DNA of 64,000 nucleotides. Source: Parcubacteria group bacterium M6-OD1-1 (lineage in GTDB: Bacteria; Patescibacteriota; Minisyncoccia; GWC2-36-17; M10-OD1-4). Each line of letters begins with the position of its first letter. Position 1 is the first letter of the stretch. The notes beneath the pieces were generated by a model. The model was not told where the DNA came from. It worked only from the letters and a program-made list of their open reading frames with translations, and made no database searches. Below, piece after piece: positions 1,518-48,701 of this stretch. The stretch lies in contig LSNK01000005.1 of the NCBI GenBank assembly GCA_003056085.1, positions 10,122 to 74,121 on the forward strand, in the 5' to 3' direction. Both the position numbers and the translations under genes were made by a program.

Positions 1518-2216
1518 ATGGAGGAAATTTCATTTTTTCAAACAATTTATAACTTTCTGATTGAACATCAATTTTTAAGTTACTTAATTGTTTTTTTAGC
1601 CACTTTTTTTGATAGCGCCTTTTTTATAGGGCTTTTAGTGCCATCCGGACTTTTAATGGCCGCTTTTGGTTTTGTAACATACGATGGCTATTTAACAACA
1701 GAATATGTGATATTTTTTGCCATATTAGGAGCTGTTTTAGGAGACACTTTAAACTTCCTTCTTGGAAATTACCACAAGAAAAAACATACTCTAAAAAATA
1801 TTGAGAAAACGAATAAACTTTTAAGAAAAAAGAATTATCTTGAGCACGGGAAAGAATTTTTTGAAAAGCACGGCAGAAAAAGCGTTTTACTCGGCAGGTT
1901 TATTGGAGTAATAAGACCGTTTATTGGGTTTATCTCCGGAAGCACAAATATGCCATTCTCAAGATTTCTATACTTTAGCACTTTAGGAACAACGCTTTAT
2001 GTTCTTTTTTATTTTGAGATAGGTTATTTATTCGGATCAAGTGTTGAATTTTTTATGTCTTGGGTAAAAAGAGCTGAAAATATGCTCTTGTTTACTTTGC
2101 TTGTTATAATCTCATTTTTATATTTTAAAAATTTGATAAAGCAGAAAGTTAAACCTAAAGTATTGGAAAAATCAGAAAAAATATTAGAAAAAATTGAAAA
2201 TAAAGATATCTTATAA
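1518..2216 (+). CDS. DedA/SNARE-associated family membrane protein
   Basis: Multi-TM protein with the DedA motif GRFIGVIRPFIGFISG. Confidence 0.7.
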   Translation: MEEISFFQTIYNFLIEHQFLSYLIVFLATFFDSAFFIGLLVPSGLLMAAFGFVTYDGYLTTEYVIFFAILGAVLGDTLNFLLGNYHKKKHTLKNIEKTNKLLRKKNYLEHGKEFFEKHGRKSVLLGRFIGVIRPFIGFISGSTNMPFSRFLYFSTLGTTLYVLFYFEIGYLFGSSVEFFMSWVKRAENMLLFTLLVIISFLYFKNLIKQKVKPKVLEKSEKILEKIENKDIL

Positions 2217-3605
2217 ATTATTTTTAAAATAATTTATAAGATCATCTATTTTTATTCTATCTTGTTTCATTGTATCTCTATCACGAACCGTAACAGAATT
2301 ATCCTTTGACGAATCAAAATCTATAGTTACACAATACGGCGTTCCTATTTCATCTTGTCTTCTGTATCTTTTTCCTATTGACTGCGTTTCGTCATACTGA
2401 CAAATAAAATGCATTTTTAATTCCTCAAATATTTCTTTTGCTTTTTGTGTCAGCTCTTCTTTATTTTTCATTAATGGCAATATGGCTACTTTTACAGGCG
2501 CAATCTTTGGAGCAATTTTTAAAACCACCCTCATTTCTCCCTCTACCTCTTCCTCCTCATAAGCATCGGCAATAACAGCCAAAAAAAGCCTGCCTACTCC
2601 AATGGAAGACTCTATAATATGAGGAATAAATTTTTCATTTGTTATCGGGTCTTGATAGTCTAAGTCTTGACCACAAGCTTTAGAATGTTGAGTTAAGTCG
2701 TAATTTCCTCTTGCATGAATGCCCTCAAGCTCACGCCACCCAAAAGGATATTTAAATTCTATGTCATATGCCTCTTTTGCATAAAAAACCAAATTTTCAT
2801 GCTTAGACCATTTTAAATTTTCTTTTTTAATACCAATATCAAGTAATGCATTAAAACGATACTCTTTTAATTTTTCGTATTCTTGCATATCATTTTCCGG
2901 TCTTGTAAAATACTGCATTTCCATTTGTTCAAATTCTCTGGTTCTGAATATAAACTGTCTTGCTGTAACTTCATTTCTGAAAGCCTTACCAATTTGCGCA
3001 ATTCCAAATGGAAGTTTTAAATGAGTTGAATCTAAAACATTTTTATAATTTACATAAATACCCTGGCAAGTTTCACCTCTTAAATAAACAGGGTCTGCCT
3101 CACTCTGAGTAAAATCCCCCAAATTGGACTTAACTAAAAGATTAAAAGATTTTGCATCTGTAAAATCCTGTTTCCCGCATTTTGGACATTTTATTTTATC
3201 TTTATTTTTTGAAAAAATCTTATTAATCTCTTCATCAGACATTTTTTCATCCGCAGCAACCCCAACATCCTCCAAAAGATGATCCGCTCTGCTTCTTGTG
3301 TGGCAATTTTTACACTCAACTAACGGATCAGAGAAGCCGGACACATGACCCGAGGCCTCCCAAACTTTTGGATTCATAAAAATCCCCGCGTCCATCCCCA
3401 CAATGTCACTCCTATTTTGAACCATAACCCTCCACCAGTGAGCTTTTATATTATTTGCAAGCTCAACTCCCATAGGACCAAAGTCATACACACCGGCAAA
3501 ACCACCATAAATTTCAGATGATGGATAAACAAAACCCCTCCTCTTACAAAGAGAAATTATTTTTTTCATTAAATCTTGACCATTTTTTTCTGCCGACATA
3601 ATCAT
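2211..3605 (-). CDS. glyQS: glycyl-tRNA synthetase, single-chain alpha2 type
   Basis: Class II aaRS motifs, 464 aa, RGFVYPSSEIYGG N-terminus, C-terminal anticodon-binding domain. It sits next to tRNA-Gly. Confidence 0.9.
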   Translation of the reverse strand: MIMSAEKNGQDLMKKIISLCKRRGFVYPSSEIYGGFAGVYDFGPMGVELANNIKAHWWRVMVQNRSDIVGMDAGIFMNPKVWEASGHVSGFSDPLVECKNCHTRSRADHLLEDVGVAADEKMSDEEINKIFSKNKDKIKCPKCGKQDFTDAKSFNLLVKSNLGDFTQSEADPVYLRGETCQGIYVNYKNVLDSTHLKLPFGIAQIGKAFRNEVTARQFIFRTREFEQMEMQYFTRPENDMQEYEKLKEYRFNALLDIGIKKENLKWSKHENLVFYAKEAYDIEFKYPFGWRELEGIHARGNYDLTQHSKACGQDLDYQDPITNEKFIPHIIESSIGVGRLFLAVIADAYEEEEVEGEMRVVLKIAPKIAPVKVAILPLMKNKEELTQKAKEIFEELKMHFICQYDETQSIGKRYRRQDEIGTPYCVTIDFDSSKDNSVTVRDRDTMKQDRIKIDDLINYFKNNL

Positions 3606-3735
3606 TTAAATTAACATTTTGACTATAATATAGCACAACGAACTAAAAATTAAAAATTATATTTTAACTGCAAAACAACTCTTGAAAAAAATAAATAAAT
3701 CGTATACTATATACCTACGTTTTAAATTAAAATTA

Positions 3736-3770
3736 GCGGGTATCGTATAGAGGCTATTATCTCTGCCTTC
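3736..3770 (+). pseudogene. 5' fragment of a tRNA-Gly, identical to positions 1-35 of the intact tRNA-Gly downstream
   Basis: 35/35 nt identical to 3848-3882. Identity stops inside the anticodon loop after CTTC. Confidence 0.5.
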
Positions 3771-3847
3771 TCCCGAAAATTTCTGAAGTAAAGTAAAGTG
3801 AAATTTTCGAGGATTCCGTAAATTATATAAAAGTTCATACGCAAAGA

Positions 3848-3919
3848 GCGGGTATCGTATAGAGGCTATTATCTCTGCCTTCCAAGCAGATGACGGGGGT
3901 TCGATTCCCCCTACCCGCT
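3848..3919 (+). tRNA. tRNA-Gly (anticodon TCC)
   Basis: Manual cloverleaf fold. Acceptor GCGGGTA/TACCCGC, anticodon stem TCTGC/GCAGA, loop CTTCCAA, T-arm GGGGG-TTCGATT-CCCCC, discriminator T. No encoded CCA. Confidence 0.85.
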
Positions 3920-3941
3920 CTTTGCGCAGGAATTTACGGAG

Positions 3942-3999
3942 CAAGCAGATATCCCGCCAAAAGCGGGATAAACCTCAGTTCGATTCCCCCTACCCGCTC
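3942..3999 (+). pseudogene. 3' fragment of a tRNA-Gly (positions 36 to the 3' end) with a 27-nt hairpin replacing the 5' strand of the T-stem
   Basis: CAAGCAGAT and GTTCGATTCCCCCTACCCGCTC are identical to the intact tRNA. The intervening ATCCCGCCAAAAGCGGGATAAACCTCA destroys the T-stem. Confidence 0.45.
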
Positions 4000-4011
4000 C
4001 AAGATAAGCTT

Positions 4012-4066
4012 TAATCTCAAAACAAAAACTACAGAATTAACTCTGTAGTTTTTGTTTTGAGATTAA
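4012..4066. terminator. perfect AT-rich hairpin of about 24 bp between the tRNA-Gly locus and the hup stop; likely bidirectional terminator
   Basis: aatctcaaaacaaaaactacaga / tctgtagtttttgttttgagatt inverted repeat with a 6-nt loop. Confidence 0.5.
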
Positions 4067-4100
4067 GCTAACTCAATGCGAGAATAAATCTGAAAAAGAC

Positions 4101-4376
4101 TTATTTTACAGCTTCTTTCAAAGCCTTTCCAGCTTTGAATTTAGGAACTGTTGTAGCTTTGATCTGGATTTTTTCCCCAGTCTTTGGGTTTACACCCATT
4201 CTAGCTGCTCTGTCTGCAACCTTAAAGGCTCCAAACCCTGCAACAGCAACTTCTTCCCTTTTTGAAAGAGATTCAGTTATTGTGTCAAATACTGCTTCTA
4301 CAGCATCCAACGCTGCTTTTTTTGTTTCAAGGCCTGCTTTTGTTTGCACTGCCTCTGCTAAAGCGTCTTTGTTCAT
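4101..4376 (-). CDS. hup: DNA-binding protein HU
   Basis: 91 aa with the classic HU sequence (GFGAFKVADRAARMGVNPKTGEKIQI). Confidence 0.9.
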   Translation of the reverse strand: MNKDALAEAVQTKAGLETKKAALDAVEAVFDTITESLSKREEVAVAGFGAFKVADRAARMGVNPKTGEKIQIKATTVPKFKAGKALKEAVK

Positions 4377-4415
4377 AGTTTTTATTTAACTATTAATAAT
4401 TATAATTAATTTATT

Positions 4416-4465
4416 AGACCTGCTTCGTAATAATTTTTTTAAAAAAATTATTACGAAGCAGGTCT
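4416..4465. repeat. perfect 50-nt palindrome (25+25) in the hup 5' region
   Basis: agacctgcttcgtaataattttttt | aaaaaaattattacgaagcaggtct, followed on the plus strand by a T-rich tract. Confidence 0.55.
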
Positions 4466-4695
4466 GCCTATGACCTTTTGTTTTTTAATAAGCAATTTAT
4501 TACTATACAGTCTAACAAAATCCTTTTATTTATGCAATATTTAAGACTTACTTAGTTTAACATGGTCTGATAGCACTTTGTCAATAGCAAAAATTTTAAA
4601 ATTTTCATTACTTAACATATTCTGAAAAATCCCTAACTTTTAAAAAAGTGTCGGTAAACAAAATGAAATCAAAATAAATAATGTGAAAAAACAAT

Positions 4696-4789
4696 GGAAT
4701 CTTGGCGCGCAACGAGCACCGAATGCGAGTCATACTAATCGGTACGGCGAACAAGAGCAGGGTTGCAAGCCAAGAAATCACGTTTTTTT
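4696..4789 (+). ncRNA. candidate small structured RNA, class unknown
   Basis: About 90-nt GC-rich island in an AT-rich spacer between rny and hup. A closing helix CUUGGC/GCCAAG and internal hairpins (ACCGA/UCGGU) are followed by a U7 tract on the plus strand. Confidence 0.3.
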
Positions 4790-4821
4790 GTGCTATTCAC
4801 TAATCTTGTAAAAAATAAGCT

Positions 4822-6351: not shown

Positions 6352-6734
6352 AATTATTATAATTGATAGTCGTTCTTATCGGGGAAATCTCTATAAAAAA
6401 TAATTAGGTTGAGTAACTTAAAACTGCATAATAAGAATTACGCTTTTTTAAATCTATTATTCAGATTAGTAGTATTTAATTGAGTTTTTTGTAAAATTTT
6501 CATCTAAAAAACAATTTATCAACCATAATCAGAAAATTCCGAGGAACTTATATCAAAATTGAAATTAACTTTTATACTAAAACGATATCAGAAATGGCAT
6601 TTTTTGTCAAAATAAATATTTAAATTCTATATAATGAACAATTATATTTTAAAACTTGAGATTAATTGTTAAAATCCATTTTTACTTGTTGTCCGTTTCA
6701 GGTTACTGATTACTTTTTATCTGATATAATAATA

Positions 6735-6772
6735 GGAGCGTGGAAATTAACCTTATCCAAATTTCACGCTCC
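6735..6772 (+). promoter_or_regulatory. stable stem-loop 4 nt upstream of the xer start codon
   Basis: GGAGCGTG...CACGCTCC 8-bp GC stem extended by gaaatt/aaattt. Confidence 0.3.
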
Positions 6773-6776
6773 CAAT

Positions 6777-7676
6777 ATGGCAATCAATCAACTAATAACC
6801 CAATTTTTAGAATATTTGGAAATAGAAAAAAACAGATCTCAAAAAACACTTGAGAATTACGACCATTATCTAAAAAGGTTTTTAATTTTTACAAAAGTCA
6901 AAAATCCTTCTGATATTAACTTAGAAATGGTGAGAAAATACAGAATACATTTAAATAGAATAACAGACAACGATGGAAAATCACTTAAAAAAACAACCCA
7001 AAACTACCATGTAATAGCTTTAAGAGCATTTTTAAAATATTTAGCCAAGCAAGACATCAAGACATTAAGCGCAGAGAAAATAGAACTCGGAAAAAATCCC
7101 GAAAGAGACATAACTTTTCTAAACTCAGATGAGGTTAAAAGACTGCTTTCTGCTCCAAAAGGAGATGACCTATCACCCCTCAGAGATAAAGCTATTTTGG
7201 AAACTCTTTTTTCAACCGGACTTCGCGTATCTGAGTTATGCTCTTTAAATAGAGATTCAACAAATATAAAAAATGGTGAATTCTCTGTTTTGGGAAAAGG
7301 CGGGAAAATGAGAATAGTTTTTTTATCGGACTCTGCAAAAGAAGCTATAAAAAAATATCTTTTAAAGAGAGAGGATGTGGATAATGCATTATTTGTGCGA
7401 AACACAAACCATAAAAAAGAAAATCTAAGGCTAACTGAAAGGTCTATTCAAAGAATTATAAAAAAATACGCTCAAAAAGCGGGAATTGTAAAAAATATAA
7501 GCCCTCATAAACTTCGTCACAGCTTTGCAACTGACCTTTTGCAAAACGGAGCAGATATTCGTTCTGTTCAAAGCATGTTAGGACACTCAAGCATTACAAC
7601 AACACAAATATACACCCACTATTCAGACAAACACTTAAAAGAAATCCATAAAAAGTTTCACTCAAAAGAAAAATAA
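6777..7676 (+). CDS. xerC: tyrosine site-specific recombinase XerC/XerD family
   Basis: N-terminal core-binding domain plus catalytic RxxR...HxLRH...Y (HKLRHSFATDLL, TQIYTHY). The ORF-track start at 6666 is probably too long. The ATG at 6777 (MAINQLITQFLEYLE) matches Xer N-termini. Confidence 0.85.
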   Translation: MAINQLITQFLEYLEIEKNRSQKTLENYDHYLKRFLIFTKVKNPSDINLEMVRKYRIHLNRITDNDGKSLKKTTQNYHVIALRAFLKYLAKQDIKTLSAEKIELGKNPERDITFLNSDEVKRLLSAPKGDDLSPLRDKAILETLFSTGLRVSELCSLNRDSTNIKNGEFSVLGKGGKMRIVFLSDSAKEAIKKYLLKREDVDNALFVRNTNHKKENLRLTERSIQRIIKKYAQKAGIVKNISPHKLRHSFATDLLQNGADIRSVQSMLGHSSITTTQIYTHYSDKHLKEIHKKFHSKEK

Positions 7677-8340: not shown

Positions 8341-8439
8341 TTTATTAACTTATTAGAAATTAGCTTTTTAACCTGTTAGTCAATTTATATTACCACTCGC
8401 ACCAATCATTTAACAAGTTATAAAAAAATTAATACTCTG

Positions 8440-9717
8440 TTAATTTGTTTTTTCCAATAAATTTAAAACTTTTTCATTTATAATCATCATCTGAGAATAC
8501 GCTTTCAACCTTCCCGGATCCATTGCATTGTTTGCTGATGCCAAATCTTTATATTTAAGCAAAATCTCGTTTATTTTCTCCGTTACTTCATCATCTCCAG
8601 CCTTTATCTCTTCTTGTTTTGCAATCTCTTCAATAATCATAGCCGATTTTATTCTTAGCTCCGCTTGAGGCTTCATATCATTTTTTAAATCTTCCTCTGT
8701 TTTTTTGATGCTTAAAAGATATGTTTCAAAATCCAATCCGTGCTGCTTGATGCCCATCTCCATTTCCTTAAGCATCTTATCCACCTCTTTTTTTATCATT
8801 ATTTCCGGTAATTCTATTCTTGATTCTTTAGCAATCTCTCCTACTAAAGAATTCCTGAATTCTTCTTTTTCTTTTGCCTCTTTCTCTTTTTTCATTCCAT
8901 CTCTTATATTTTTTTTAAGATCCTCTATAGTTTTAAAATTACCCAAAGAACTTACAAACTCATCATTAAGCTCCGGAAGCGATACTTCAATAACATTATT
9001 TAACTTTACAGAAAACTCCAGCTCCTTACCTGCTAATTCCTTTTTAAAATAACTTTTCGGGGCTTTAAGTTTAAACTTTTTCTCATCCCCCGCTTTCATT
9101 CCCTTAACATTATCTTCAAATCCTTCAATAAACTTTCCTCCTCCGATTTTAACAGGGTGATTCTTGGAATCTCCCCCCTCAATCTTTACACCATCAAGCC
9201 GAACCTCAAAGTTAACTTCCGCAATATCATCTTCTTTAACCTCTCTTTTAACAGATACTTCCTTTGCTCTTGAATTTTGAATTTGCGAAATTGTTTCTTC
9301 AATCTCCTTATCTTCTACTGTTATATTCTTTTCTCTTTTCTTTACAACATCTTTGGATATTTTTTTATAATCCGGAAGTTTTATTTCAGGATAAACAGAA
9401 ACAATAACATTAACAATTATCGGATTTCCTTCCGCCATTTTCTTAACATCCATCTTGGGATAATCCACGGCAAAAATATCATTTCTTCTCAAAAATTCCT
9501 CATATTTTTTTTCAATAGCAAGTCTGCCGGCTTCTTCAAAGATAGCCTGTTTTCCCACCATTTTTTCCAAAACATCTCTGGGAGCCTTGCCTTTCCTGAA
9601 GCCTTTTATTTCAATATCTTTTGAAATTTCTTTTGCTGCGTTATCCAAATAAACAGCAGCCTCATCCGGTGATATTTCAAGTTCAAATTCTAATTGTGAA
9701 TTGGGTAATTTTTTCAT
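8440..9717 (-). CDS. tig: trigger factor
   Basis: N-terminal ribosome-binding domain with GFRKGKAP motif, FKBP-type PPIase middle, C-terminal helical arm, 425 aa. Confidence 0.9.
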   Translation of the reverse strand: MKKLPNSQLEFELEISPDEAAVYLDNAAKEISKDIEIKGFRKGKAPRDVLEKMVGKQAIFEEAGRLAIEKKYEEFLRRNDIFAVDYPKMDVKKMAEGNPIIVNVIVSVYPEIKLPDYKKISKDVVKKREKNITVEDKEIEETISQIQNSRAKEVSVKREVKEDDIAEVNFEVRLDGVKIEGGDSKNHPVKIGGGKFIEGFEDNVKGMKAGDEKKFKLKAPKSYFKKELAGKELEFSVKLNNVIEVSLPELNDEFVSSLGNFKTIEDLKKNIRDGMKKEKEAKEKEEFRNSLVGEIAKESRIELPEIMIKKEVDKMLKEMEMGIKQHGLDFETYLLSIKKTEEDLKNDMKPQAELRIKSAMIIEEIAKQEEIKAGDDEVTEKINEILLKYKDLASANNAMDPGRLKAYSQMMIINEKVLNLLEKTN

Positions 9718-13571: not shown

Positions 13572-15035
13572 TTAGACCTTAAATTTTCTTTTTTCTTCTT
13601 TTTCAATAATTTTTATCTGTTCTTCAGACTTTTTAACCATTGACGCAAGCTCACTTATTGAAAAATCATTTAGTTTCTTCACTTTTTTTTCTAAATATTC
13701 TTTTTTGTTTCTATTAGGATCATCTAAAACCTCAGAAAGCAACGCGTTTAACAGCAACCCTACTTTTGGTCCCGGCTTTATATTTAAAAGCTTTATCACC
13801 TCATCACCCTTTATTTTAAGCATTTTTACAGAAACCGGGTCTTTTGAGACCTTATTTACCATATATCTAAAATGCCTCAACTTATACGGCTCTGCTTTAG
13901 GAGTTCCTGAACCTATTCTATCCGCAAACCTAACCTTAATTAAATCCTCAATATTTTCCAAACCGACCTTAACAACAAGCCTTCTTACTGAAGAATCTGT
14001 AACTTCTCCAACATTATAGTAAAAAAGATGATATTTAACTAATAAGGAAATTTTGTCAATTTCCTTATTAGAGAATTTCAATCTTTTCATTATTTTTTTA
14101 GTAATTTTAGCACCAACTATATCGTGGTTATAAAAAGTTGCATTATACCCTTTTCCTCTTTTTGTTTGAGGTTTTGCAACATCATGAAATAGAGCGCTTA
14201 GTCTTACTTCTAAAGAATATTTTTGATCTGCTGTATACTGCAAAGCTCTTGTATTATGCTCATAAACATCGTAGATATGGTGTTTATTCTGTTCAACCCC
14301 CACTCCGGCTAATGTTTCGGGCATCACATAGTTAAGAATGTTAAGCTTAACCATAAGATCAAACCCATACTTTGGATGATCTGAAAGTACAATTTTAATA
14401 AGCTCATCTCTTATTCTTTCTTTTGAAATATAATCAATATTTCCTGATAATTTCCTTATTATTTTTTCCGTTTCCCCTTCAATAGGGAAATCCAGCTGTG
14501 ATGCAAATCTTACAGCCCTCATAAGTCTTAGGGCATCTTCTTTAAATCTTTCTTCAGGATCACCAACAGCTCGGATAAGTTTTTCTTTTAAGTCTCTTTG
14601 ACCACCAAATAAGTCAATTATTTTGCCATCAGCTCCTAAAGCCATAGCATTTATGGTAAAATCACGCCTTTTTAAGTCCTCTTTTAGACTTTTTGTATAT
14701 TTTACAGAATCGGGGTGCCTCTTATCTGAATACTTCTGATCAACTCTATAAGTAGTTATTTCCATTTGAAATAAATCAACAAAGACTGTAACTGTTCCAA
14801 ATTTATTTTCATAAAAATTTTTAGGAAATATTTTTTGAATTTCTTCCGGCAATGCGCTTGTGGCAATATCCCAATCTTTTGGTTCCTTATTAATAAGGAA
14901 ATCGCGAACACAACCGCCGACAGCATAAGCTTCAAATCCCGATTTTTTTAATTCATTTATTGCAAAAATAACTTCTTTTGGCAATTTCATTGTTTTTGTA
15001 TTAATTAATAAAATATAGCAAATATTTGCTTTCAA
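13572..15035 (-). CDS. cca: CCA tRNA nucleotidyltransferase / poly(A) polymerase family with HD domain
   Basis: GGCVRDFL...DWDIAT Pol-beta NTase head, RDFTINAMA, HD motif (HDVAKP), 487 aa. Confidence 0.85.
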   Translation of the reverse strand: MKANICYILLINTKTMKLPKEVIFAINELKKSGFEAYAVGGCVRDFLINKEPKDWDIATSALPEEIQKIFPKNFYENKFGTVTVFVDLFQMEITTYRVDQKYSDKRHPDSVKYTKSLKEDLKRRDFTINAMALGADGKIIDLFGGQRDLKEKLIRAVGDPEERFKEDALRLMRAVRFASQLDFPIEGETEKIIRKLSGNIDYISKERIRDELIKIVLSDHPKYGFDLMVKLNILNYVMPETLAGVGVEQNKHHIYDVYEHNTRALQYTADQKYSLEVRLSALFHDVAKPQTKRGKGYNATFYNHDIVGAKITKKIMKRLKFSNKEIDKISLLVKYHLFYYNVGEVTDSSVRRLVVKVGLENIEDLIKVRFADRIGSGTPKAEPYKLRHFRYMVNKVSKDPVSVKMLKIKGDEVIKLLNIKPGPKVGLLLNALLSEVLDDPNRNKKEYLEKKVKKLNDFSISELASMVKKSEEQIKIIEKEEKRKFKV

Positions 15036-15083: not shown

Positions 15084-15155
15084 GCCTTTGTAGTTTAATG
15101 GATAGAACGCAGCTTTGCGGAAGCTGTAATCGAGGTCCGATTCCTCGCAAAGGCA
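15084..15155 (+). tRNA. tRNA with anticodon GCG as folded (tRNA-Arg)
   Basis: Manual cloverleaf. Acceptor GCCTTTG/CAAAGGC, D-stem GTTT/GAAC, anticodon stem CAGCT/AGCTG, loop TTGCGGA, T-arm CGAGG-TCCGATT-CCTCG, discriminator A. Confidence 0.7.
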
Positions 15156-15224
15156 CAAAATTAAATTTTCCTTTACTGTGAAATTATATAAATATATTTA
15201 ACAATAATTTTATAACTTTGTCAA

Positions 15225-32134: not shown

Positions 32135-35100
32135 ATGGAAAGATTTTCAATAAAAAAAGCTCAAGAAGAAGCGGAAAAAATGAAAGACAAAATATCTTCC
32201 GGAGAATCTGAAAATTACAATGAAGCTGAAAAGATGATAGAAAAAGACAACGCACAATTGGATAAGAACATTGATGCAAAAGCAATAGAACATTTAGAAA
32301 AAGAAGAAAATAGAATTTTTACTGAAATTGAAATATCAGGAGTGGATGACCTTGCTGAAAGCATTAAAAAATTATCTCAAAAAACACATAAAGGAAGAGT
32401 GACTTCTGTTCATAGAGAGGGTCTTTTACGTATGATCCCTGAACTTAAAAAATTAATATTAAAACCAATTCCCACCAAAGAAGAACAAGAAAGAATAGAA
32501 GAATTGTACGGTTATTTAAAAGAAGAGGACGATAAATTATTTAAAGAGGCCAATAAACAAGAAATTGAAAAAGAAAAACCAAAAGAAACGAAAAAAGACA
32601 TAGTTTTTGAAAAAACAAGAAGTTTTGAAGAAAAAAATCAAGAAATTATTAACAAAGAGTTTGATAAAAATTCCGAAGAACTTCCCGACGAAGAAAAAAA
32701 AACAATAAAAAAACCTATTGAAAAAACAGAAGAAGAAACTGAAAAACCGGAAGAAACAAAACAAAAAATTGAAAAGGAAACCGAAACTGAAAAACAGACA
32801 GAAGAAAAATCAAAAATTGACCTTTCGCCGGAGCAGGAGCAAAAAATAGAAGAGGTATTTTTGAAATTTAACATCTCAAAGGAATACTTGGAAAACATGG
32901 AAGGATTTTCAGACCTTTCCTTCGGTCAACGTCTTTTGGTTGCAGAAAATCTAAATCATCTTATCGTAAAAGAAGCAAAAAAAGAGGCAAAGACGATACA
33001 AGAAACGGAAGCAAAAGAAAGCAGATTTAAAAACATGCTGAAGTTAGCGCTAACTTTAGGCGCAAGCAAAACTTTTCAAACAGCTGATTTGGAAAAATCT
33101 ATTTTACAAAAAAAGATATCAGAAGGCGTATCAGAAGACAACAAAACATATTTGGAACAAATGATAAAAAGCTCAAAAGAACTTTGCCCCGACGTAGAGG
33201 TGTCGGAAGATGGAAAATTGGAGATACAATACATAAAACAGTCAGAATTTGAAAAGTTAACTTTAATAGAAAAAATAGATGTTCTTGATTTTAATAAAGC
33301 GGCGAAAGAATTCAGCAAAATACCAAACGAATGGAAATATGACACCGCAAAAGAGAGTGAAAGACAAGCTTACGAAGAAAAAAAATCCTCTTATGATAAA
33401 TTAAGGGATGTCATCTTAAAATTAAAAACTAATTTGGAGGATGAAAAATCTGCGGCACTATTTATGAATGCCATTGATGAAAAAGTAGCTATAAACAGCC
33501 TGCTTAGCTCTAACCCGGACATTGAAAAAGAAATCCAAAAAATAACAAATCAATCTGCATTAGCAAAAGCGGCAAAAGAACTTATAAATCCAAACTCAAA
33601 TCTTGCATACGCAAGTTATGGTTACGCTGCTCGTGCCGGAGTAGTTGCGGTTTTAGGCGTAACAAGCCCTTTGGTGATCCCGGCTATTGCCGGAGCAGCC
33701 GGAGGAATTGGATTTTTTAAGAGCAGGAAGGAAGCAGAAAAAGCGGTCAGTGCAAGAAAAGCTTTAGGAAGAGAAGGAAAAGAGGTCAAAGAAAAACTAA
33801 AATATGAAACTGCGCAAGGCGAGAAAAAAGAAAGGGAACTAAAAGAATTCACTGATGCTTCATTTTTTTCAAAAAGAATAAACAGATTAAAAGACAAAAT
33901 AGAATCAATAGACGAAAGTGACCCTGACTTTGACAATCAATTGGAAATTTTAGAAAAAAAGATTTATGAAACTATGAGTCTTGCAGATGAAAAATTTAAA
34001 AGAGGATTGATTAATTTTGGCGATACAAAAGAGCAAATCACAAACAAACTTGATTTTGTGCAAAGCATGGGACGAGCGCGCGCTTATACAAAAACAAATA
34101 TACAAAACACTGAAAACAAAGTGTCTGAAATATTAAAAAGTGTAGGAGAACACCAAAACACAGCCGAAAACATACGAAAAAAAGAAGTTTGGAGAAAAGC
34201 AAGAAACGGAGCTTTAATACGCGCCGGATTTGCTTCCGCCGGAGCAGCTATAGCCGGTTTTGTCCATTCTCCTGATGTGGAAAAGCCTGAAACTTTAGAA
34301 GACCAAACCATCCTCAAAAAAGAGTCTGAGTTTCCGGAATCACAAATTAAGGAATTCCCGCCTAAACAAGAAATAACATTTTCAGAAACACCCAAAATAG
34401 TAAGTGAAGAAAATATAGCTAAACTTTATCAATGGGAAAATAAAAATAATATTGACCATTCCGTTGTGGTGAATATCCATAAAGAGTTAGTTAAAAATCC
34501 TGAACTGGAAACCGGACTTACAGATAAAAATTTAAAATTCATTGAAAATAATACAGAACTGTTTAAAAACGAAAATGCAGCTGAAAAAATACAGAAGCTT
34601 CTTTCACAAAATGAACTCATTTATGAAATAAGGAAAGGAGACAATTTATGGAATATAATAAAATCTCAGCTGGAAGACAGAAAGATCACAGAAGGTTTAA
34701 GTGAAGGAAAACAAACTTATATAATTGACGACTTAAAAGACAAATTTGCTAAACTAAATTCGGAGGAGCTAAAAAAACTTGGAATATCAAGTGGGAATAT
34801 AGACAAACTCACCGCAGGAGATAAAATTGATTTAACATCTGTTTTAGGTTCAAAAAATGGATTGGGCAACATTTCTAATGCTGTTGAAGGGGCGCAGAAA
34901 TTATCAGAAGAACAAATTGCGAACATTGAAGCAAACAACACAAAAATAGATTCTTTTTATGATGAACTAAGAGAAGCAAAAGCGGAAAATCCCGACATAA
35001 AGATACCCCAACTTAACGAAGATATGGCAGATAAAATAATAAAAGGTGAGATTAATGTAAGAAGTTATATAAATCCGGAAGTCTCGGGACAACAAGCGGT

Positions 35101-35479
35101 AGAATCTGCGGTAGACATCTCTTCGATAGAAAATATAAAAGATGCCATAACTAATGGAAAAACAGAAAGCATTATTGGTGAATATAACGAAGATTTATTT
35201 GAAGGAGTTTCGGGAGAAGTATTAAAAAATGGAGATACTGTTGTAAGTTTCAACGTTAAAAATAACGCAGCTGATGTAAAATTAATTATTACTCAAGAAG
35301 GCAAAATGGCGATAGACGGCTGGGGTTTAAGAAATTGGCCTGAAAATGTAAAATTGGGATGGTTATTTGGATCCAGAAAATTAGATACATTTACAGACTT
35401 AACCGATAAAAACATGAAAGAAGCCTTGGAATTTATAAACAAAGGAAAAGCAATAATAATAGAGAAGCCGGAAGAATAA
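32135..35479 (+). CDS. large (1114 aa) Glu/Lys-rich coiled-coil protein with two glycine-zipper-like hydrophobic segments
   Basis: Long low-complexity helical regions. Hydrophobic GxxxG-rich segments YGYAARAGVVAVLGVTSPLVIPAIAGAAGGIGFF and IRAGFASAGAAIAGFV. C-terminal globular part of about 250 aa. Confidence 0.5.
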   Translation: MERFSIKKAQEEAEKMKDKISSGESENYNEAEKMIEKDNAQLDKNIDAKAIEHLEKEENRIFTEIEISGVDDLAESIKKLSQKTHKGRVTSVHREGLLRMIPELKKLILKPIPTKEEQERIEELYGYLKEEDDKLFKEANKQEIEKEKPKETKKDIVFEKTRSFEEKNQEIINKEFDKNSEELPDEEKKTIKKPIEKTEEETEKPEETKQKIEKETETEKQTEEKSKIDLSPEQEQKIEEVFLKFNISKEYLENMEGFSDLSFGQRLLVAENLNHLIVKEAKKEAKTIQETEAKESRFKNMLKLALTLGASKTFQTADLEKSILQKKISEGVSEDNKTYLEQMIKSSKELCPDVEVSEDGKLEIQYIKQSEFEKLTLIEKIDVLDFNKAAKEFSKIPNEWKYDTAKESERQAYEEKKSSYDKLRDVILKLKTNLEDEKSAALFMNAIDEKVAINSLLSSNPDIEKEIQKITNQSALAKAAKELINPNSNLAYASYGYAARAGVVAVLGVTSPLVIPAIAGAAGGIGFFKSRKEAEKAVSARKALGREGKEVKEKLKYETAQGEKKERELKEFTDASFFSKRINRLKDKIESIDESDPDFDNQLEILEKKIYETMSLADEKFKRGLINFGDTKEQITNKLDFVQSMGRARAYTKTNIQNTENKVSEILKSVGEHQNTAENIRKKEVWRKARNGALIRAGFASAGAAIAGFVHSPDVEKPETLEDQTILKKESEFPESQIKEFPPKQEITFSETPKIVSEENIAKLYQWENKNNIDHSVVVNIHKELVKNPELETGLTDKNLKFIENNTELFKNENAAEKIQKLLSQNELIYEIRKGDNLWNIIKSQLEDRKITEGLSEGKQTYIIDDLKDKFAKLNSEELKKLGISSGNIDKLTAGDKIDLTSVLGSKNGLGNISNAVEGAQKLSEEQIANIEANNTKIDSFYDELREAKAENPDIKIPQLNEDMADKIIKGEINVRSYINPEVSGQQAVESAVDISSIENIKDAITNGKTESIIGEYNEDLFEGVSGEVLKNGDTVVSFNVKNNAADVKLIITQEGKMAIDGWGLRNWPENVKLGWLFGSRKLDTFTDLTDKNMKEALEFINKGKAIIIEKPEE

Positions 35480-38330: not shown

Positions 38331-39311
38331 ATGACGAATATAAAAAATAAAGTTTCAAACCAAAAACGGAATGTAATCATTCCTATTGTTTTAATATTGG
38401 GAGTATTTATCGGCGGGGTTGTGGTTTTACAAACAAAAGGCATAGGAGCAAAAGTCTTAAAAGAAGGCAAAAAAATATTTATACCGGTAGCGGAAGAGCC
38501 TGACGCAGACCCTGACAACGATGGACTAAAAAATTGGGAAGAAGAAGTATACAAAACCGATTCCAGAAAATATGACACGGATGGCGATGGCTATTCCGAT
38601 GGAGAAGAAGTTTTATCCGGATACGACCCTACAAAACCGGCACCAAATGACGCACTTGAAGGCACGGATACATCTATCCCCAGACCAACACCTAAAAATT
38701 TAACAGATTATTTATCGCAACTGATAGTTTCAAAAGTAGAGTCGGGTGAGTTTAAGCCAATTTCCAACGCTGACACGGCGCCTGATTCTGTCTTGCTTAA
38801 TAATGAAGATATATTTAATGAAGTTTTAACCAATATATCAGAAAAAGCAAAAACAGAATTTATCTTGTCAGAAATACCGGACTCTGAAATAAAAATATCA
38901 AAAAACCCAACAACAAAACAAGAAGTAGTGGCTTATATCACTAAAATGTCTGCCGTTTTGGATGATGATAAAATCTTTTCAGATACAGGGCTTTCAGAAG
39001 CTAAGATAATAGAAGACGCTGTAAACACAAAAGACACCAGAGATATCGAAAAAATTATTAATTTTTACCAAGTAGGAATTGAAAAAATAAAAAAAATAAC
39101 TGTTCCTTTGGACTTTGTAGATATACACAAAGAACAAATAGCTATTTTTGAATTCACAAAAGAAATATTAATTGCAATAAAAAACTTTGAAAATGACCCC
39201 GCAATGGCGGCGGCGGCGGCAGAAAGATACCCTGAATTAAAAAACATGCTGGAAAGTTTTACAAATAAACTTATTGATAGATTAGAAAAATATTCAGATG
39301 ATAAAATTTGA
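38331..39311 (+). CDS. membrane-anchored secreted protein with thrombospondin-type-3-like Ca-binding repeats
   Basis: N-terminal TM anchor, DADPDNDGLKNWEE and DTDGDGYSDGEE (DxDxDG) repeats. Confidence 0.5.
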   Translation: MTNIKNKVSNQKRNVIIPIVLILGVFIGGVVVLQTKGIGAKVLKEGKKIFIPVAEEPDADPDNDGLKNWEEEVYKTDSRKYDTDGDGYSDGEEVLSGYDPTKPAPNDALEGTDTSIPRPTPKNLTDYLSQLIVSKVESGEFKPISNADTAPDSVLLNNEDIFNEVLTNISEKAKTEFILSEIPDSEIKISKNPTTKQEVVAYITKMSAVLDDDKIFSDTGLSEAKIIEDAVNTKDTRDIEKIINFYQVGIEKIKKITVPLDFVDIHKEQIAIFEFTKEILIAIKNFENDPAMAAAAAERYPELKNMLESFTNKLIDRLEKYSDDKI

Positions 39312-42300
39312 GAAAATATTTAAGCCAATATCGTCGTTTTTAATTGCGGTGCTTATCGTAAACTCTTTTTTGTTTGTTATTCTTGCCAATCCAAATCCAG
39401 CACAGGCACAAATGGTAGTTACTGATCCGGGAAATACAGCTGCAAGCGTCTCACAAACCGCAAAACAGACTGCTTGGGAAGCCATAAAACAAGCATGGGA
39501 TAAAAGTGAGGGTGTATTAACTGGAGCATACAGAGCAACCACTGAAGCATTTAACCAATGGGATAAATCAACAGCTATACTTGCAAGAGTCTCTTACGCT
39601 CTTATGTATGTAACTATAAATGTCATGCTGACTAAAATGACCAAGGATATCGTTGGTTGGTTAGATGGCGGGGCGAAAGGCTCTCCAAAAATAACTACAG
39701 ATTTCGGACAGCTTTTTGAAGATTCTCTTGACTTGGCAGCCGGAGCGGTGATTGGAGATATATTAGGTCTGAGAAATGGCGAACTTTGTAATCCCGGTTT
39801 TTTAAAAGGCTTTGTTGTTCTTTCTTTAGACAGAGTTCAGCAGCCGACGTTTAGAGAAAGAATACGGTGTTCATTTTCTGATATAGGGGAAAGTTTGGAT
39901 GATTTTAAAAAAGATTTCTCCAAAGGAGGTTGGGGAGGATGGATAAGATATTCAAGAAGAGCTAATAACCAGATTGGCAATCTTATTGAAACCCAAAATG
40001 AATTAAGAGAAAGACAAATTGCAAGCGTCAAAGCAACTGAAGAAGAATCAAAAACAGGAAGAGGATTCAGCGCACAAAAAGTTTGTAGAGTAACCAGGGA
40101 TATTAATTTTGTTGATGAAACTGGAGCATTCAGCGGCGAAGCGGAAACTTTTAAAGTTGGTGATGCAGACGTCGCCGGAACACTTTCTCTCGGTTCAAAA
40201 ATGAAAGATATAATGGGAAATTACAACTACACTAACTTGGAAGACTTTAAAATATTTTGGAATAATCGCGGCGGATCATTTAAGTGCAAGATAGAAACTC
40301 CTGCAAGCGCGATATCAGAACTTGGCTCAAAAATATTGAATGCTCCTTTCGACACATTAAATAAACAACTTCAAGCGTCAGCTGAAAATTTAGGAAAAAG
40401 TGCTCCTGCAATCTTTAGACCATACCTAAATGCAATATCAGCATCAGCGTTAAATTTATTAATCAGAAAAGAAAAAGGACTTGTTTCAGGAGTATTCGGA
40501 CAAAGAAAATCAAGAAAATATAGAAGGGCAAACACCAGTGCTTTCCAAAAATACTCAAAAACGCTTTATTCAAGTCGTAACCTACTCGGCTCTGCAAACT
40601 CTTTAAGAGACTCTCTTTTAAGAACGCTTTTAAACTTCAGTCTTTTTGCCGGGACACTTACAACTTTAACAGAAAAAAAGGGGGTGCTTTGGAAACCCCC
40701 TATATTAGTTAGTAATTTACAGCATGGCGGACTTATTTGGGGCGCAGGATTTGGAGGAGGAAGGACAGACAACAGAAATATTTGGATGGGTCAGGGCGAT
40801 CCGGGGGATCCGAATGACATAAGCTATCCTGAAGACCCCTCCAGAATAGACACAAGAATATTTGATCAAAGGATAAAAGACAGAGTAAAATCTGTTGTGG
40901 AAAATAAATCTGCAGAAGGATATCCTCTTCTCCCTCCTGCGGGAACCATCAACACATCTGCAAATATTTGCGGGGCTTTTTCACAAGAATTGGAAGTAGA
41001 TGGACAAGATCTTAATTTTACACTTTCAGAGAGAATAGGATATGTAGCACTCGCAGGAGTTTATATTGATGGAGGACTTGATGAAGATGGAGACCCAACA
41101 ACACAAACGACAGCAGCCATAGGAAGCATATACACCTCTACTCCTTCTCTTCTTACCGGTAAAAACGGCTGGTTCGGAGATGTTAGAGTTTCAGCATACA
41201 ACGACAGCGGAAGAACAAGAGAAGCAGGAGCAGGATTTGAACCTTGGCCTGACAGATATGTCAGAGAAAATATTTCTACAGGGGAAGTCGTTACTTTTAT
41301 AGACATGGGAGATTTTCAAAATGGATTTATAGAAGTTGGAGTTCCACCAACATATACAGACCCAGAAACCAGAGCAACCGACCCTCAGATATACGCTTCT
41401 GAGCTTGGTGATATTTCTATTATTCCAAACAGTGATGGTTCTGCGACGGCATTAGAGTCTCAAAATGAAAGAGTTTATTCAAGGAACGCAAACACAGGAG
41501 AACCCGATAACACCTCAGGAAATGTTTATTATATAACAGGAAGCAGAGGAGTATACCAAGAAATAACCCGAGGAAGCGCATTTACTTTACCACCTCTTTC
41601 AAGAGTTTGTGTAGATGATAGACCTGCTTTATATTATACAAGAACAGGTGATGTTGGATCTGTTTTCGCAACAGGAGTTGGTCCGTTTCCAACTGGCAAT
41701 ACTGGTGGTGGATGGCAATGTGGCGGGTCTACATATGGTGTAAAAATAGCTGATATTTTTTGGGACAGAATATCCACCAACCCAACCCTATCAGCTTCTG
41801 TAAATTTCGATGGATGTGGACGTGGAGATATATTAAATATAAGTTTTGATAGAAATACTGCTGTGGGAAGCATTGCTAATAGCGACAATGGCACCCTCGT
41901 TTATGGAAATAGAATATGCACAGCACCAGGTGCACAATCAGTTAGAATAAGTAGTTCGCTCATTATATTACCTGACGACCCAATGGTGGGAATCCCGGCT
42001 AATGTAGCAAATTCTAAATATCAAATAAAATATTTCAGTCCTTCATTTGAAGGAGCAACGACTATAATAGAAAACAACAGAACAATCATTGTTTATGACG
42101 ATTTTAGAGATCCTGCAACAAATTTTCCTACAACAATGATAAGCGCAACCACAACGATTGATAATATTAATCCGTACAAGATGCGGCTCGTGGACTTTTA
42201 TAGAGAAATAAATGAGTTAACAAATGAATTTCTTACAAAAATAAGAGTAATGATTGGCTATCCTGAAAAATCAGGAGATCCCGTAGGACAGACAAAAAAA

Positions 42301-44489: not shown

Positions 44490-46478
44490 ATGAAGTTTTT
44501 AAACTTAAAATTCATCATTTCTTTCCTGCTTGTTTTTGTAGTGATTTTTATTAGTAAAACTTCTTTTGTGCATGCCGATGCGATAGATGAGCTTGTAATA
44601 AACCCTGCGAACAGCCTTTTGGAGCTTATTTTAAAAGGCCTCAGTTGGATGTTGGCATTTTTAGGAACGCTTGTTGATGATGTTATGCAGCCGCAATCAA
44701 TTCTTCAAGCCGATATAGTAAAAACAGGATGGAGAATAACTCGAGATTTTGCAAATATGTTCTTTATTTTAATACTCCTTGCTATTGCTTTAAGCTTTAT
44801 ATTATTCCCGCGCTTTCAAATAAAACAAGCTTTGCCAAGACTTCTCTTAATTGCCTTACTTATCAATTTTAGCTTGCCAATCGCAGGAATATTTATAGAT
44901 TTTGCCAATATATTTACTAAATATTTTTTGGATCAAGCAGCTACCGGAGGAAACATAAGTGAGCTCATTGCAAGCCAACTGAATATTACGGCTATTCGTG
45001 ATGTGTCAGAACAAGCATTAACTGCAAATATCGGCAATACTCCGGGTCAAATATTTTTATCATTGCTTTTTGGCATCGTTTTTGTATCCGTAGTTATTTT
45101 TATATTTATCGCATTAGCTTTTATGTTTTTAATAAGAAATATCTATCTTTATATACTTCTTATTATTTTGCCGCTTGCGCTTGTGGCGTCTATTCTTCCT
45201 TCGGGAAGAAGCTATTTTTCGCAATGGTCTCATAAATTTTTTCAGTGGACATTTTTTGCGCCAATCGCAACATTTTTCATCTTTTTATCTATGGTTTCAT
45301 TTAGCAGTATTATAAAAGCTGACGCAGCACCCCTTGCTACAGACGCAGGTGTAGGCTTTCTTGCAGGAACATATGATTACATAATAATACTTCTACTCTT
45401 AATGGGTTCTTTGTTTGCCGCAAACTCATTAGGAGTTCAAACTGCCGGAGTAACTAACAAAATGATGAAATATGGAGGAAAAGCCCTGCGTGGAGGCTGG
45501 TCCGGCGTTAAAAAGGTTAATCATGGAATACAATATTCAAGAGAGAGATTTGGCAAACCAGCGTCACAAAAAGCAAGAGAAACATCTGCTGAATATTCTG
45601 CAAAAGGCGGCTTAATAAACACTCTTATAGGCAAATATCATGACACGAGAGCCGACAAATTAGAAGCACATATACCTGATGGAGTCTTGTCAAAAGAAGA
45701 AAAAGAAAAAGCAAAGCGGCAAGCAAAAGAAAACCCAGACCAACTATTAGGAAGAATAAAACTACCTGGACTAAGCGCAAGGAAGAAAACAGAACTGCAA
45801 ACGATAGCTGCCGAGGAAGGAATATTAAAAGAAAAAGATGCAAGAGGTATCGTTGATCCGAAAAAAACAAAGAAGATGCTTGGAGATGTGTATGAAAAAG
45901 CTTTAAAAATAGGAAATAAAGAACTTGTGGAGGCTATAAGTAAAAATTCTCCGGCACTTGTTTTAGAAAAACTTGAAGAAAAAATTGATGGAATGAATTC
46001 ATTAGAACTCCAGAAAAAATACGGAGTAAATACTAAAGAAAAAGCTAAGAAGGCCGTTAGAAATAATCTATTCAGAAAAATTAATACTGACGATATAACT
46101 AAAATGTGGGATACGCTTGACAAATCTTCACGAACAGAGTTAGTAGCCAATAAAGTTGCCAGCGGAATGTCTATAGATCAAGTTAAAAAAATTCATGATT
46201 CCGGAATGGCTCCTGAATTTTCTAAAGAATTTGAAAAACTTGCAACCGGACAATACAGAAGGCAAAGAAAAGATTTACATGATGTATTTGAAGAAAATAC
46301 TTCCATAATTCGGTCATTTCAGAGTGCTCCTGCAAAGGCAATGTTTGGAGAAGAAGGCTTAACCGAGAGACGAACAACAACACAAGCTGCATGGAACCAG
46401 AGAAAAGAAAAGAAGGAAGGGGAAGGAAAAGCAAAAAAAGAAGAAAAAGAAAGAAAAGCGGAAGAAACGATGATATAG
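44490..46478 (+). CDS. polytopic membrane protein, VirB6/TrbL/PrgH-like candidate, with charged C-terminal domain
   Basis: At least 7 predicted TM helices in the first 330 aa, then a hydrophilic Lys/Glu-rich cytoplasmic tail of about 330 aa. This is VirB6-family architecture. Confidence 0.5.
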   Translation: MKFLNLKFIISFLLVFVVIFISKTSFVHADAIDELVINPANSLLELILKGLSWMLAFLGTLVDDVMQPQSILQADIVKTGWRITRDFANMFFILILLAIALSFILFPRFQIKQALPRLLLIALLINFSLPIAGIFIDFANIFTKYFLDQAATGGNISELIASQLNITAIRDVSEQALTANIGNTPGQIFLSLLFGIVFVSVVIFIFIALAFMFLIRNIYLYILLIILPLALVASILPSGRSYFSQWSHKFFQWTFFAPIATFFIFLSMVSFSSIIKADAAPLATDAGVGFLAGTYDYIIILLLLMGSLFAANSLGVQTAGVTNKMMKYGGKALRGGWSGVKKVNHGIQYSRERFGKPASQKARETSAEYSAKGGLINTLIGKYHDTRADKLEAHIPDGVLSKEEKEKAKRQAKENPDQLLGRIKLPGLSARKKTELQTIAAEEGILKEKDARGIVDPKKTKKMLGDVYEKALKIGNKELVEAISKNSPALVLEKLEEKIDGMNSLELQKKYGVNTKEKAKKAVRNNLFRKINTDDITKMWDTLDKSSRTELVANKVASGMSIDQVKKIHDSGMAPEFSKEFEKLATGQYRRQRKDLHDVFEENTSIIRSFQSAPAKAMFGEEGLTERRTTTQAAWNQRKEKKEGEGKAKKEEKERKAEETMI

Positions 46479-48625: not shown

Positions 48626-48701
48626 AATTAGCTTCTTAGCTTTTTAGGAAAAACCCTGAAAAACTAAGAAGTCAAAAAGCTAAAAAGCTAAAAAATTGGC
48701 T
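48626..48701 (+). repeat. 76-bp element copy 2, ending in TTGGCT start of the VirB4 ATPase ORF
   Basis: Direct repeat of 47904-47979, with ATG changed to TTG. Confidence 0.85.

Follow-up and report, generated by a model that had tools for sequence, protein, structure and literature searches.

A 64,000-nt stretch of contig LSNK01000005.1 from Parcubacteria group bacterium M6-OD1-1 (the window, numbered below from its first base) contains a gene for tRNA-Gly(UCC) that is split between nucleotides 35 and 36, within the anticodon loop, by a 171-nt insert (3771-3941) which itself carries an intact copy of the same tRNA. The order at the locus is thus 5' half, intact tRNA-Gly, 3' half, or A-X-AB-Y-B, where X and Y denote the non-tRNA portions of the insert. 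This nested arrangement was confirmed to be real and unusual, and has been seen in one species. Comparisons with related lineages suggest that it probably arose when a resident gene with an encoded CCA (the CCA-type) was split at 35/36 by a 171-bp segment bearing a version of the same tRNA enclosed in a long leader-trailer stem (the stem-type). The elements of the locus are as follows, with the related lineages, designated by L numbers, being described further below:

3682..3710, + strand: promoter-like site TTGAAA-17-TACTAT, ~25 nt upstream of the outer 5' half (promoter scan; element common to L101, L102, L104, L106 and L111)
3736..3770, + strand: outer 5' half, nucleotides 1-35 of tRNA-Gly(UCC), ending after C35; 35/35 identity to 3848-3882
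3771..3813, + strand: H1, the hairpin with which the insert begins; stem TCCCGAAAATTTC / GAAATTTTCGAGGA, 13 bp with one bulge and a 16-nt loop (predicted fold)
3814..3824, + strand: 5' strand of H2, the helix at the base of the leader-trailer stem, pairing with 3931-3941 (predicted fold)
3825..3847, + strand: leader of the inner tRNA, of which 3840-3847 (CGCAAAGA) pairs with the discriminator and trailer (predicted pairing); homologous to the L104 leader
3848..3919, + strand: intact inner tRNA-Gly(UCC) with discriminator U and no encoded CCA (ARAGORN, 3848-3920; Rfam RF00005, 3848-3919, 60.3 bits)
3920..3941, + strand: trailer of the inner tRNA, consisting of CTTTGCG paired with the leader, CAGG unpaired, and AATTTACGGAG as the 3' strand of H2 (predicted fold; L104 comparison)
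3942..3950, + strand: outer nucleotides 36-44 (CAAGCAGAT), the displaced 3' fragment restarting at C36; 9/9 identity to 3883-3891
3951..3977, + strand: 27-nt block, hairpin ATCCCGC-CAAAA-GCGGGAT plus AAACCTCA, in place of GACGGGG (sequence comparison with the inner tRNA)
3978..4001, + strand: outer nucleotides 53-73 (T loop, T-stem 3' strand, acceptor 3' strand and discriminator) with an encoded CCA; 22/22 identity between 3978-3999 and 3899-3920
4011..4066, unstranded: palindrome (arms of 28 nt) separating the tRNA locus from the convergent HU gene; its AAAACAAAAAC...GTTTTTGTTTT arms agree with the terminator that follows tRNA-Gly-CCA in L106

All retained bases of the outer gene are identical to the inner copy (66/66). 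As the 5' repeat reaches one base further, to position -1, the locus contains a pair of 36-nt direct repeats (3735-3770 and 3847-3882) and a second pair of 22 nt (3899-3920 and 3978-3999). The break points of the two outer fragments are exactly complementary (35|36), with 0 bases duplicated and 0 lost, a coincidence expected by chance in only ~1 in 70 cases had two copies decayed independently. The junctions, CTTC|TCCCG on the 5' side and CGGAG|CAAG on the 3' side, have no bases in common, and the insert termini read TCCCGAAAA...ACGGAG, the final base being G3941. With the outer halves joined, the insertless site would read CTGCCTTCCAAGCAGATATCCCGC, and the joined ends of a 171-nt circle would read AATTTACGGAGTCCCGAAAATTTC. 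The outer 3' fragment ends in an encoded CCA (3999-4001), which the inner tRNA lacks. The GACGGGG sequence swapped out by the 27-nt block comprises the variable loop and four bases of the 5' strand of the T stem, and the block is a second lesion of the outer gene; joined in silico, the outer exons are drawn by ARAGORN with a 19-nt extra arm and 1/5 T-stem pairs. The inner copy is the sole tRNA called in the region by ARAGORN and Rfam and, judged by its sequence, is probably a functional gene. An earlier interpretation of the same DNA (the sequence-only reading) had recognized both the intact inner tRNA and the interruption between nucleotides 35 and 36, and everything it stated about the sequence of 3736-3999 holds base for base.

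The non-tRNA part of the insert amounts to 99 nt, namely X (77 nt, 5') and Y (22 nt, 3'). In direct orientation X and Y are unrelated to each other, and neither these nor the 27-nt block gave an alignment better than shuffled sequences when compared with the tRNA pieces, the window and the relatives. The pairing of 3840-3847 with 3919-3926 (TCTTTGCG) noted in the sequence-only reading is borne out, adding 8 bp to the acceptor stem and extending it to 15 bp, while the second helix described there as 9 bp exists in a longer form, with H2 comprising 11 bp (3814-3824 with 3931-3941) including one G-T. In the predicted fold H1 abuts H2, which brings the first and last bases of the insert side by side, and the insert emerges from a three-way junction closed by the outer acceptor and anticodon stems. 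The ends of the insert form inverted repeats matching at 8/11 positions (TCCCGAAAATT versus the reverse complement CTCCGTAAATT), which follow from the similar H1 and H2 stems in AT-rich sequence. The fold of the region is far more stable than those of shuffled sequences (z = -7.1). The opposite strand has a TTG-initiated open reading frame of 95 aa (3657-3944, - strand) that overlaps, in antisense, the outer 5' half, the insert and the inner tRNA; although an annotator might take it for a gene, it is almost certainly spurious.

Two further metagenome assemblies (VAPL010147686.1 and VAPM010159090.1) contain this intergenic sequence of 495 nt without a single change; the second has one base different within the adjoining glycyl-tRNA synthetase gene, glyQS, and hence does not represent the same data. 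Further short-read contigs from the organism break off at the repeats or at long palindromes close by, with a Logan contig ending within the 5' half and an LSNV contig ending 14 nt past HU. Such breaks in or beside repeats and palindromes are the only indication pointing to an artefact of assembly or amplification, which we regard as extremely improbable in view of the agreement of three assemblies, one with its independent glyQS base. The novel junctions C35|TCCCG and CGGAG|C36 must also exist in the reads, and the assembly path is unambiguous because a single X separates the two copies of the 36-nt repeat.

The closest homologues of the GlyRS and RNase Y of the window belong to Patescibacteria annotated as Azambacteria or Parcubacteria. 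GlyRS proved a poor guide to the syntenic loci, as the synteny of glyQS is quick to decay: neither of the closest database homologues (78% and 74% identity) is syntenic, and none of the 23 nearest genomes in the Genome Taxonomy Database by GlyRS (<=68% identity) has a tRNA next to glyQS. The loci were instead reached via RNase Y homologues of 76-87% identity, which yielded five Azambacteria-like lineages for comparison, the contig of a further lineage, L110, having ended too early to be included. Their tRNA-Gly(UCC) genes are as follows:

L101 (RNase Y 87% identical): simple gene, no CCA
L102 (82%): simple gene, CCA encoded
L104 (80%): simple gene, no CCA, long leader-trailer stem
L106/L108 (78%): simple gene, CCA encoded
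L111/L112 (76%): simple gene, CCA encoded

Each of the five lineages possesses a single, simple tRNA-Gly(UCC) gene in a RNase Y - HU - ... - glyQS/VTT neighbourhood, with no intron in it, and an 11-mer search revealed no additional tRNA fragments in any of them; the nesting is thus specific to the lineage of the window. The sequence-only reading had named simple tandem genes with independent decay in related genomes as the finding that would speak against it, and the relatives show nothing of this kind. The promoter cTTGAAAAAA-17-TAnAAT precedes the single gene in L101, L102, L104, L106 and L111, with 17-22 nt between the -10 element and +1 in L101, L102 and L111 as against 25 nt before the outer 5' half of the window. 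The encoded CCA followed by A at the outer 3' end recurs in L102, L106 and L111, and the AAAACAAAAAC...GTTTTTGTTTT terminator just before HU is shared with L106. Together, the matching promoter, encoded CCA and HU-side terminator indicate that the ancestral gene stood where the outer halves now lie. An exact search with the 35-nt 5' half found no match in 185,579 species genomes, pointing to a tRNA sequence that is lineage-specific.

The association of the locus with glyQS (2211-3605, - strand), remarked upon in the sequence-only reading, is correct as regards the identity of the gene; the glyQS-tRNA-Gly synteny is conserved in the relatives, and is therefore an ancestral trait and not a consequence of the nesting. 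Some variation was observed around this synteny. In L101 the promoter-tRNA-Gly unit (2799-2871) is inverted relative to the other lineages, and lies co-oriented with and 32 nt upstream of the glyQS start codon. In L106 an 850-nt non-coding stretch between the tRNA-Gly promoter and glyQS contains, at 8380-8620, related palindromes built on ACTCACGATCGTGAGT / CACTCACTCAACTTGCGATCGCAAGTTGAGTGAGTG, which may be a small hairpin-repeat family adjoining the tRNA-Gly gene in this clade. Comparison of window positions 3606-4100 and 6352-6665 with L101, L102, L104, L106 and L111 also points to gene losses in the lineage of the window, namely of CNNM/CBS or LysM genes between HU and tRNA-Gly/glyQS, of an AA_kinase gene between Xer and RNase Y, and of a response regulator adjoining ClpP, implying that the locus saw several deletions besides the nesting.

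The flanks of the inner tRNA set it apart from the outer gene and unite it with the gene of L104. Over 18 nt on either side it matches L104 at 14/18 positions upstream and 13/18 downstream, the other relatives being at background (3-8/18). In both lineages there is in-register pairing of the leader with the discriminator and trailer, at 11/13 positions in the window and 12/13 in L104, where the stem folds even longer, and the differences between the two helices preserve pairing (C-G to U.G, G-C to A-U, AxC to A-U). The homology of these inner 13 positions to the flanks of the un-nested L104 gene, together with the paired changes, indicates that the helix is a heritable trait of a stem-type gene as opposed to a by-product of insertion, and disagrees with the earlier suggestion of a resemblance to the terminal inverted repeats of a miniature insertion. 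The gene for tRNA-Arg(GCG) in the window (15084-15156) has neither an encoded CCA nor leader-trailer pairing, indicating that the extended stem is not general to the tRNA genes of this genome. In a neighbour-joining tree of RNase Y the window groups with L110, L101 and L102, and L104 with L109, while L106 and L111 lie outside. The CCA-type gene is accordingly found both outside (L106, L111) and inside (L102) the clade of the window, and the stem-type in L104 and the inner copy only. This distribution implies that the two versions must have coexisted or been exchanged in the lineage. The L104 gene stands behind the ordinary promoter, without displaced halves or the terminal motif of the insert, and a search for half-tRNA remnants in its leader and trailer gave no significant result.

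In the explanation that we favour, the resident gene, with its ancestral promoter, short leader, encoded CCA and a terminator that also serves the HU gene, would have been split at the DNA level exactly between nucleotides 35 and 36 by a 171-bp segment comprising the H1 hairpin followed by a complete tRNA-Gly(UCC) inside a leader-trailer stem. One and the same step would have destroyed the resident gene and supplied an equivalent tRNA; since the insert replaces the lost function, such an event would be selectively neutral and could have been fixed. The outer halves would afterwards have been pseudogene remnants, one of which later gained the 27-nt block that abolishes the T stem. The site at 3682-3710 is the probable promoter of the whole locus and the palindrome at 4011-4066 its probable bidirectional terminator, to judge from their sequences and their counterparts in the relatives; the promoter scan called no promoter-like site directly upstream of the inner tRNA. 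We infer a single transcript of ~330-380 nt between these two elements, from which the inner tRNA would be freed by the normal end-processing enzymes acting on the extended acceptor/leader-trailer duplex. Its CCA would be added by the CCA-adding enzyme encoded at 13572-15035, and the outer half-molecules would be by-products. The alternative of a complex precursor, also raised in the sequence-only reading, is supported in no more than the trivial sense that everything probably lies on one transcript. Viewed in this manner, the locus is a target-restoring insertion into a tRNA gene and, at present, a single-lineage event.

Certain observations weigh against this reconstruction. The main difficulty is that the inner and outer pieces share all six substitutions which distinguish this tRNA from those of the relatives (D loop AGAGG versus AATGG; T arm GGGGG..ATT..CCCCC versus CGGGG..AAT..CCCCG), implying that the donor was an unseen paralogue in the same genome lineage or that gene conversion homogenised the copies. 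In the 64-kb window neither a donor locus nor a further copy of the insert came to light, nor did an enzyme capable of so precise and duplication-free an insertion. Stem-type flanks occur in one relative only, L104, and the tree was derived from a single protein. Moreover, templated quasi-palindrome correction can generate paired changes within an inverted repeat even where the structure of the RNA is not under selection. Other rearrangements account for the locus less well: simple tandem duplication, unequal crossing-over and repair by synthesis-dependent strand annealing between two copies were worked out on paper and none yields the order A-X-AB-Y-B. Tandem duplication with independent decay is at odds with the unrelatedness of X and Y, the complementary truncation points and the single gene in the relatives, and the order of the pieces is not that of a circularly permuted tRNA gene.

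One rival explanation holds that the insert is a small non-autonomous mobile cassette with terminal inverted repeats, moving as a circular or end-joined intermediate, which targets the cognate anticodon loop and brings a harmless replacement tRNA. Its inverted-repeat ends are suggestive of this, as are the juxtaposition of its termini by H1 and H2 and the 22-bp near-palindrome formed by the joined ends with the junction at its centre. Likewise, the point of insertion lies 0.5 nt away from the dyad of a palindrome (the anticodon stem-loop), the insertion was precise and without target duplication, and the stem-type flanks in a second lineage fit a transferable version of the gene. We nonetheless consider a cassette of this type unlikely, given that the terminal motif, H1 and leader have no other copy in the 64-kb window, and that a 25-mer spanning H1/H2 matched only the organism's own contig among 241 million metagenome records. 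The ends of the supposed cassette are without viral matches (the tRNA 5' region, leader junction and trailer junction gave none in viral contigs), and Pfam domain scans of 30 window ORFs, the scope of all domain searches reported here, revealed no transposase. The only integrase-family gene found nearby encodes a Xer-type tyrosine recombinase (6666-7676) that is syntenic in all relatives, namely L102, L104, L106, L109 and L111, all of which lack the insert, and the stem-type gene of L104 shows no trace of displaced halves or of the terminal motif. The same lack of further copies disfavours the miniature insertion element envisaged in the sequence-only reading. The hairpin ATCCCGCCAAAAGCGGGAT, for copies of which that reading had proposed a search, is not a genome repeat: this 19-mer has 11 matches in viral contigs, all from one family of related phage loci (L090-L100, IMG/VR) in which it forms a conserved intrinsic terminator stem-loop followed by a T run, and its resemblance to the outer 3' block is coincidental. 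We give only slim credence to the bolder proposal that the insert is the first minimal, self-compensating tRNA gene-replacement cassette, inserting at the intron-favoured 35/36 position, with L104 as a later stage that has lost the outer halves.

An alternative that dispenses with horizontal transfer is that the nested state is old, having been present in the ancestor of the window, L101, L102 and L104, homogenised by gene conversion and then resolved in a different way in each lineage, such that L102 regained a simple CCA-type gene by direct-repeat recombination, L104 lost the outer halves, and the window retains the intermediate. This would explain the presence of both gene versions in one clade and of a stem-type gene behind the orthologous promoter in L104; deletions between the 36-nt and 22-nt repeats would regenerate a perfect promoter-tRNA-CCA-terminator gene, and shared lineage-specific substitutions are as expected of conversion. 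It appears decidedly unlikely all the same, as it requires the halves to persist at 66/66 identity over a divergence of ~80% RNase Y amino-acid identity and the 27-nt block to escape conversion, with no half-copy remnant detectable in L104 or other relatives. Very unlikely, in our estimate, is the derivation of the insert from a group I intron at 35/36 whose core was lost after an intron-less tRNA copy settled in a peripheral hairpin. The insert does end in G (G3941), like the omega G of group I introns, and the inner tRNA occupies the end of a long hairpin, the usual place of insertions into introns. However, Intron_gpI (RF00028) was not matched in 3000-4800 even with permissive filters and a cut-off of E <= 10, or in the whole window at the gathering threshold. 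The smallest known group I intron, that of Azoarcus, has ~205 nt, about twice the 99 non-tRNA nucleotides of the insert. The candidate P1 is of 4 bp (CUUC/GAAG) with no evident P10, the joined exons have no T stem, no relative has an intron in tRNA-Gly, and the tRNA-bearing hairpin is homologous to the ordinary flanks of L104. Position 35/36 is an enriched site of tRNA group I introns in Patescibacteria (PMC13011429), but the introns described there have U at -1 whereas the insert has C35, although a sizeable class of tRNA introns with C at -1, Leu.3Cg, does exist (10.1101/2020.01.27.920355). For lack of a detectable catalytic core and of a T stem in the joined exons, a group I intron proper was rejected. 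The idea that the outer halves are functional, the 264-nt structure being a selected precursor in which the half-arms act as a scaffold, decoy or regulator of tRNA-Gly or GlyRS, draws on their perfect identity to the inner copy despite the 27-nt rearrangement, on the very stable predicted fold with its three-way junction closed by the outer stems, and on the adjoining glyQS. It is highly improbable considering that all five related lineages (5/5) manage with a simple gene and that the adjacency to glyQS is ancestral, with the two genes divergent and the structure outside the glyQS mRNA. Rfam scans detected no T-box or other known RNA family, and recency or conversion would equally be expected to yield the 66-nt identity.

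The locus may be compared with several known systems. As in the integrase islands and prophages of tRNA genes (PMC4383910, Islander/TIGER), a tRNA gene is split by DNA that regenerates the tRNA sequence, a displaced piece of the original gene lies at the end of the insert, and the anticodon loop is among the classical crossover sublocations. In contrast to these, the locus leaves both 5' and 3' fragments, and the insert carries a whole tRNA in place of a 3' part only, is non-coding, measures 171 bp without integrase or cargo, and has no att core at its junctions, which led us to reject an integrase island; site-specific recombination of the serine or tyrosine type was set aside upon inspection, as no di- to heptanucleotide is common to both junctions. 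With the group I introns at 35/36 (PMC13011429; 10.1101/2020.01.27.920355) the insert shares the phylum, the position, a 3' G and a structured RNA closed near its ends, and differs from them in the absence of a detectable ribozyme core, the insufficient length, the C at -1 and the non-canonical joined exons. The archaeal and algal split, permuted and multi-intron tRNA genes (PMC3978253, PMC4390854) likewise have halves separated at the anticodon loop and pieces joined in the transcript by complementary sequences; the present locus departs from these in its bacterial host, the lack of a bulge-helix-bulge (BHB) motif, the unpermuted order, the defective outer 3' half and an intact copy that makes joining needless. 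No BHB could be drawn in the minimum-free-energy and centroid folds, the junctions being placed at the three-way junction with 4-nt and 3-nt single strands, and an alternative 4-bp helix, C35-UCC/GGAG, would place the 5' junction inside a helix. A BHB intron was rejected for want of this motif, and no splicing endonuclease (EndA) or ligase was found among the scanned ORFs. To our knowledge, no described tRNA intron holds a complete tRNA, unlike this insert.

Miniature inverted-repeat transposable elements (MITEs) and the IS200/IS605-derived PATEs resemble the insert in being 100-200 bp long and hairpin-rich with imperfect inverted ends, and IS200/IS605 elements also produce no target-site duplication. 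The insert differs from them in its single copy, in having no cognate transposase in view, and in its hairpins, which abut the ends and are not subterminal with guide and linker sequences; a multicopy MITE was rejected on the single copy in the window and in the metagenome records, the absence of a transposase from the 30 scanned ORFs and the lack of target duplication. We know of no MITE or PATE with a tRNA cargo identical to its target. The position of the inner tRNA at the tip of a long leader-trailer duplex recalls the RNase III processing stems of rRNA operons and the intervening sequences of 23S rRNA, and the maintenance of this duplex between two lineages with pair-preserving changes is akin to that of rRNA processing stems, with the difference that it flanks a single tRNA and continues the acceptor stem unbroken.

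If the favoured explanation is correct, a very small non-coding insert is able to inactivate an essential tRNA gene present in single copy and, in the same event, to make good the loss; set beside genomic islands, this would be conceptually the smallest target-restoring insertion, at an anticodon-loop position favoured by group I introns in the phylum. For annotators it would mean that displaced tRNA halves are not always the ends of islands. The locus would also offer a natural system in which to study the maturation of a bacterial pre-tRNA whose leader and trailer are fully paired. It further provides a search image, namely a tRNA with complementary halves of itself on its two sides within 150 nt, from which one could learn whether cassettes of this kind are a general and overlooked route of tRNA gene turnover in reduced genomes. 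Should it prove to be a one-off rearrangement, the locus would mainly be a documented curiosity and a caution for tRNA-based estimates of genome completeness.

The window as a whole has 32% G+C and encodes GlyRS, HU, RNase Y, a Xer-type recombinase, ClpP, trigger factor, NusA and a CCA-adding enzyme, the last of which is needed because neither the inner tRNA-Gly nor tRNA-Arg (15084) has an encoded CCA. The two genes with a direct bearing on the tRNA are:

2211..3605, - strand: glyQS, dimeric class II glycyl-tRNA synthetase, divergent from the tRNA locus (Pfam tRNA-synt_2b and HGTP_anticodon)
13572..15035, - strand: CCA-adding enzyme (Pfam PolyA_pol, PolyA_pol_RNAbd, tRNA_NucTran2_2 and HD)

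Two long, near-perfect palindromes lie on either side of HU, at 4011-4066 (28-nt arms; tRNA-Gly/HU) and 4416-4465 (~25-nt arms; HU/RNase Y); both resemble bidirectional terminators of unusual length, and short-read contigs end at or near them. Further along the window, a cluster of very large ORFs (1114, 1698 and 662 aa) was observed within 32135-35479, 39298-44394, 44490-46478 and 48696-50477. The 1114-aa and 662-aa ORFs, the two of this cluster that were scanned, gave no Pfam match. The cluster adjoins a TraG/HerA-type P-loop ATPase and may represent a secretion or DNA-transfer module.

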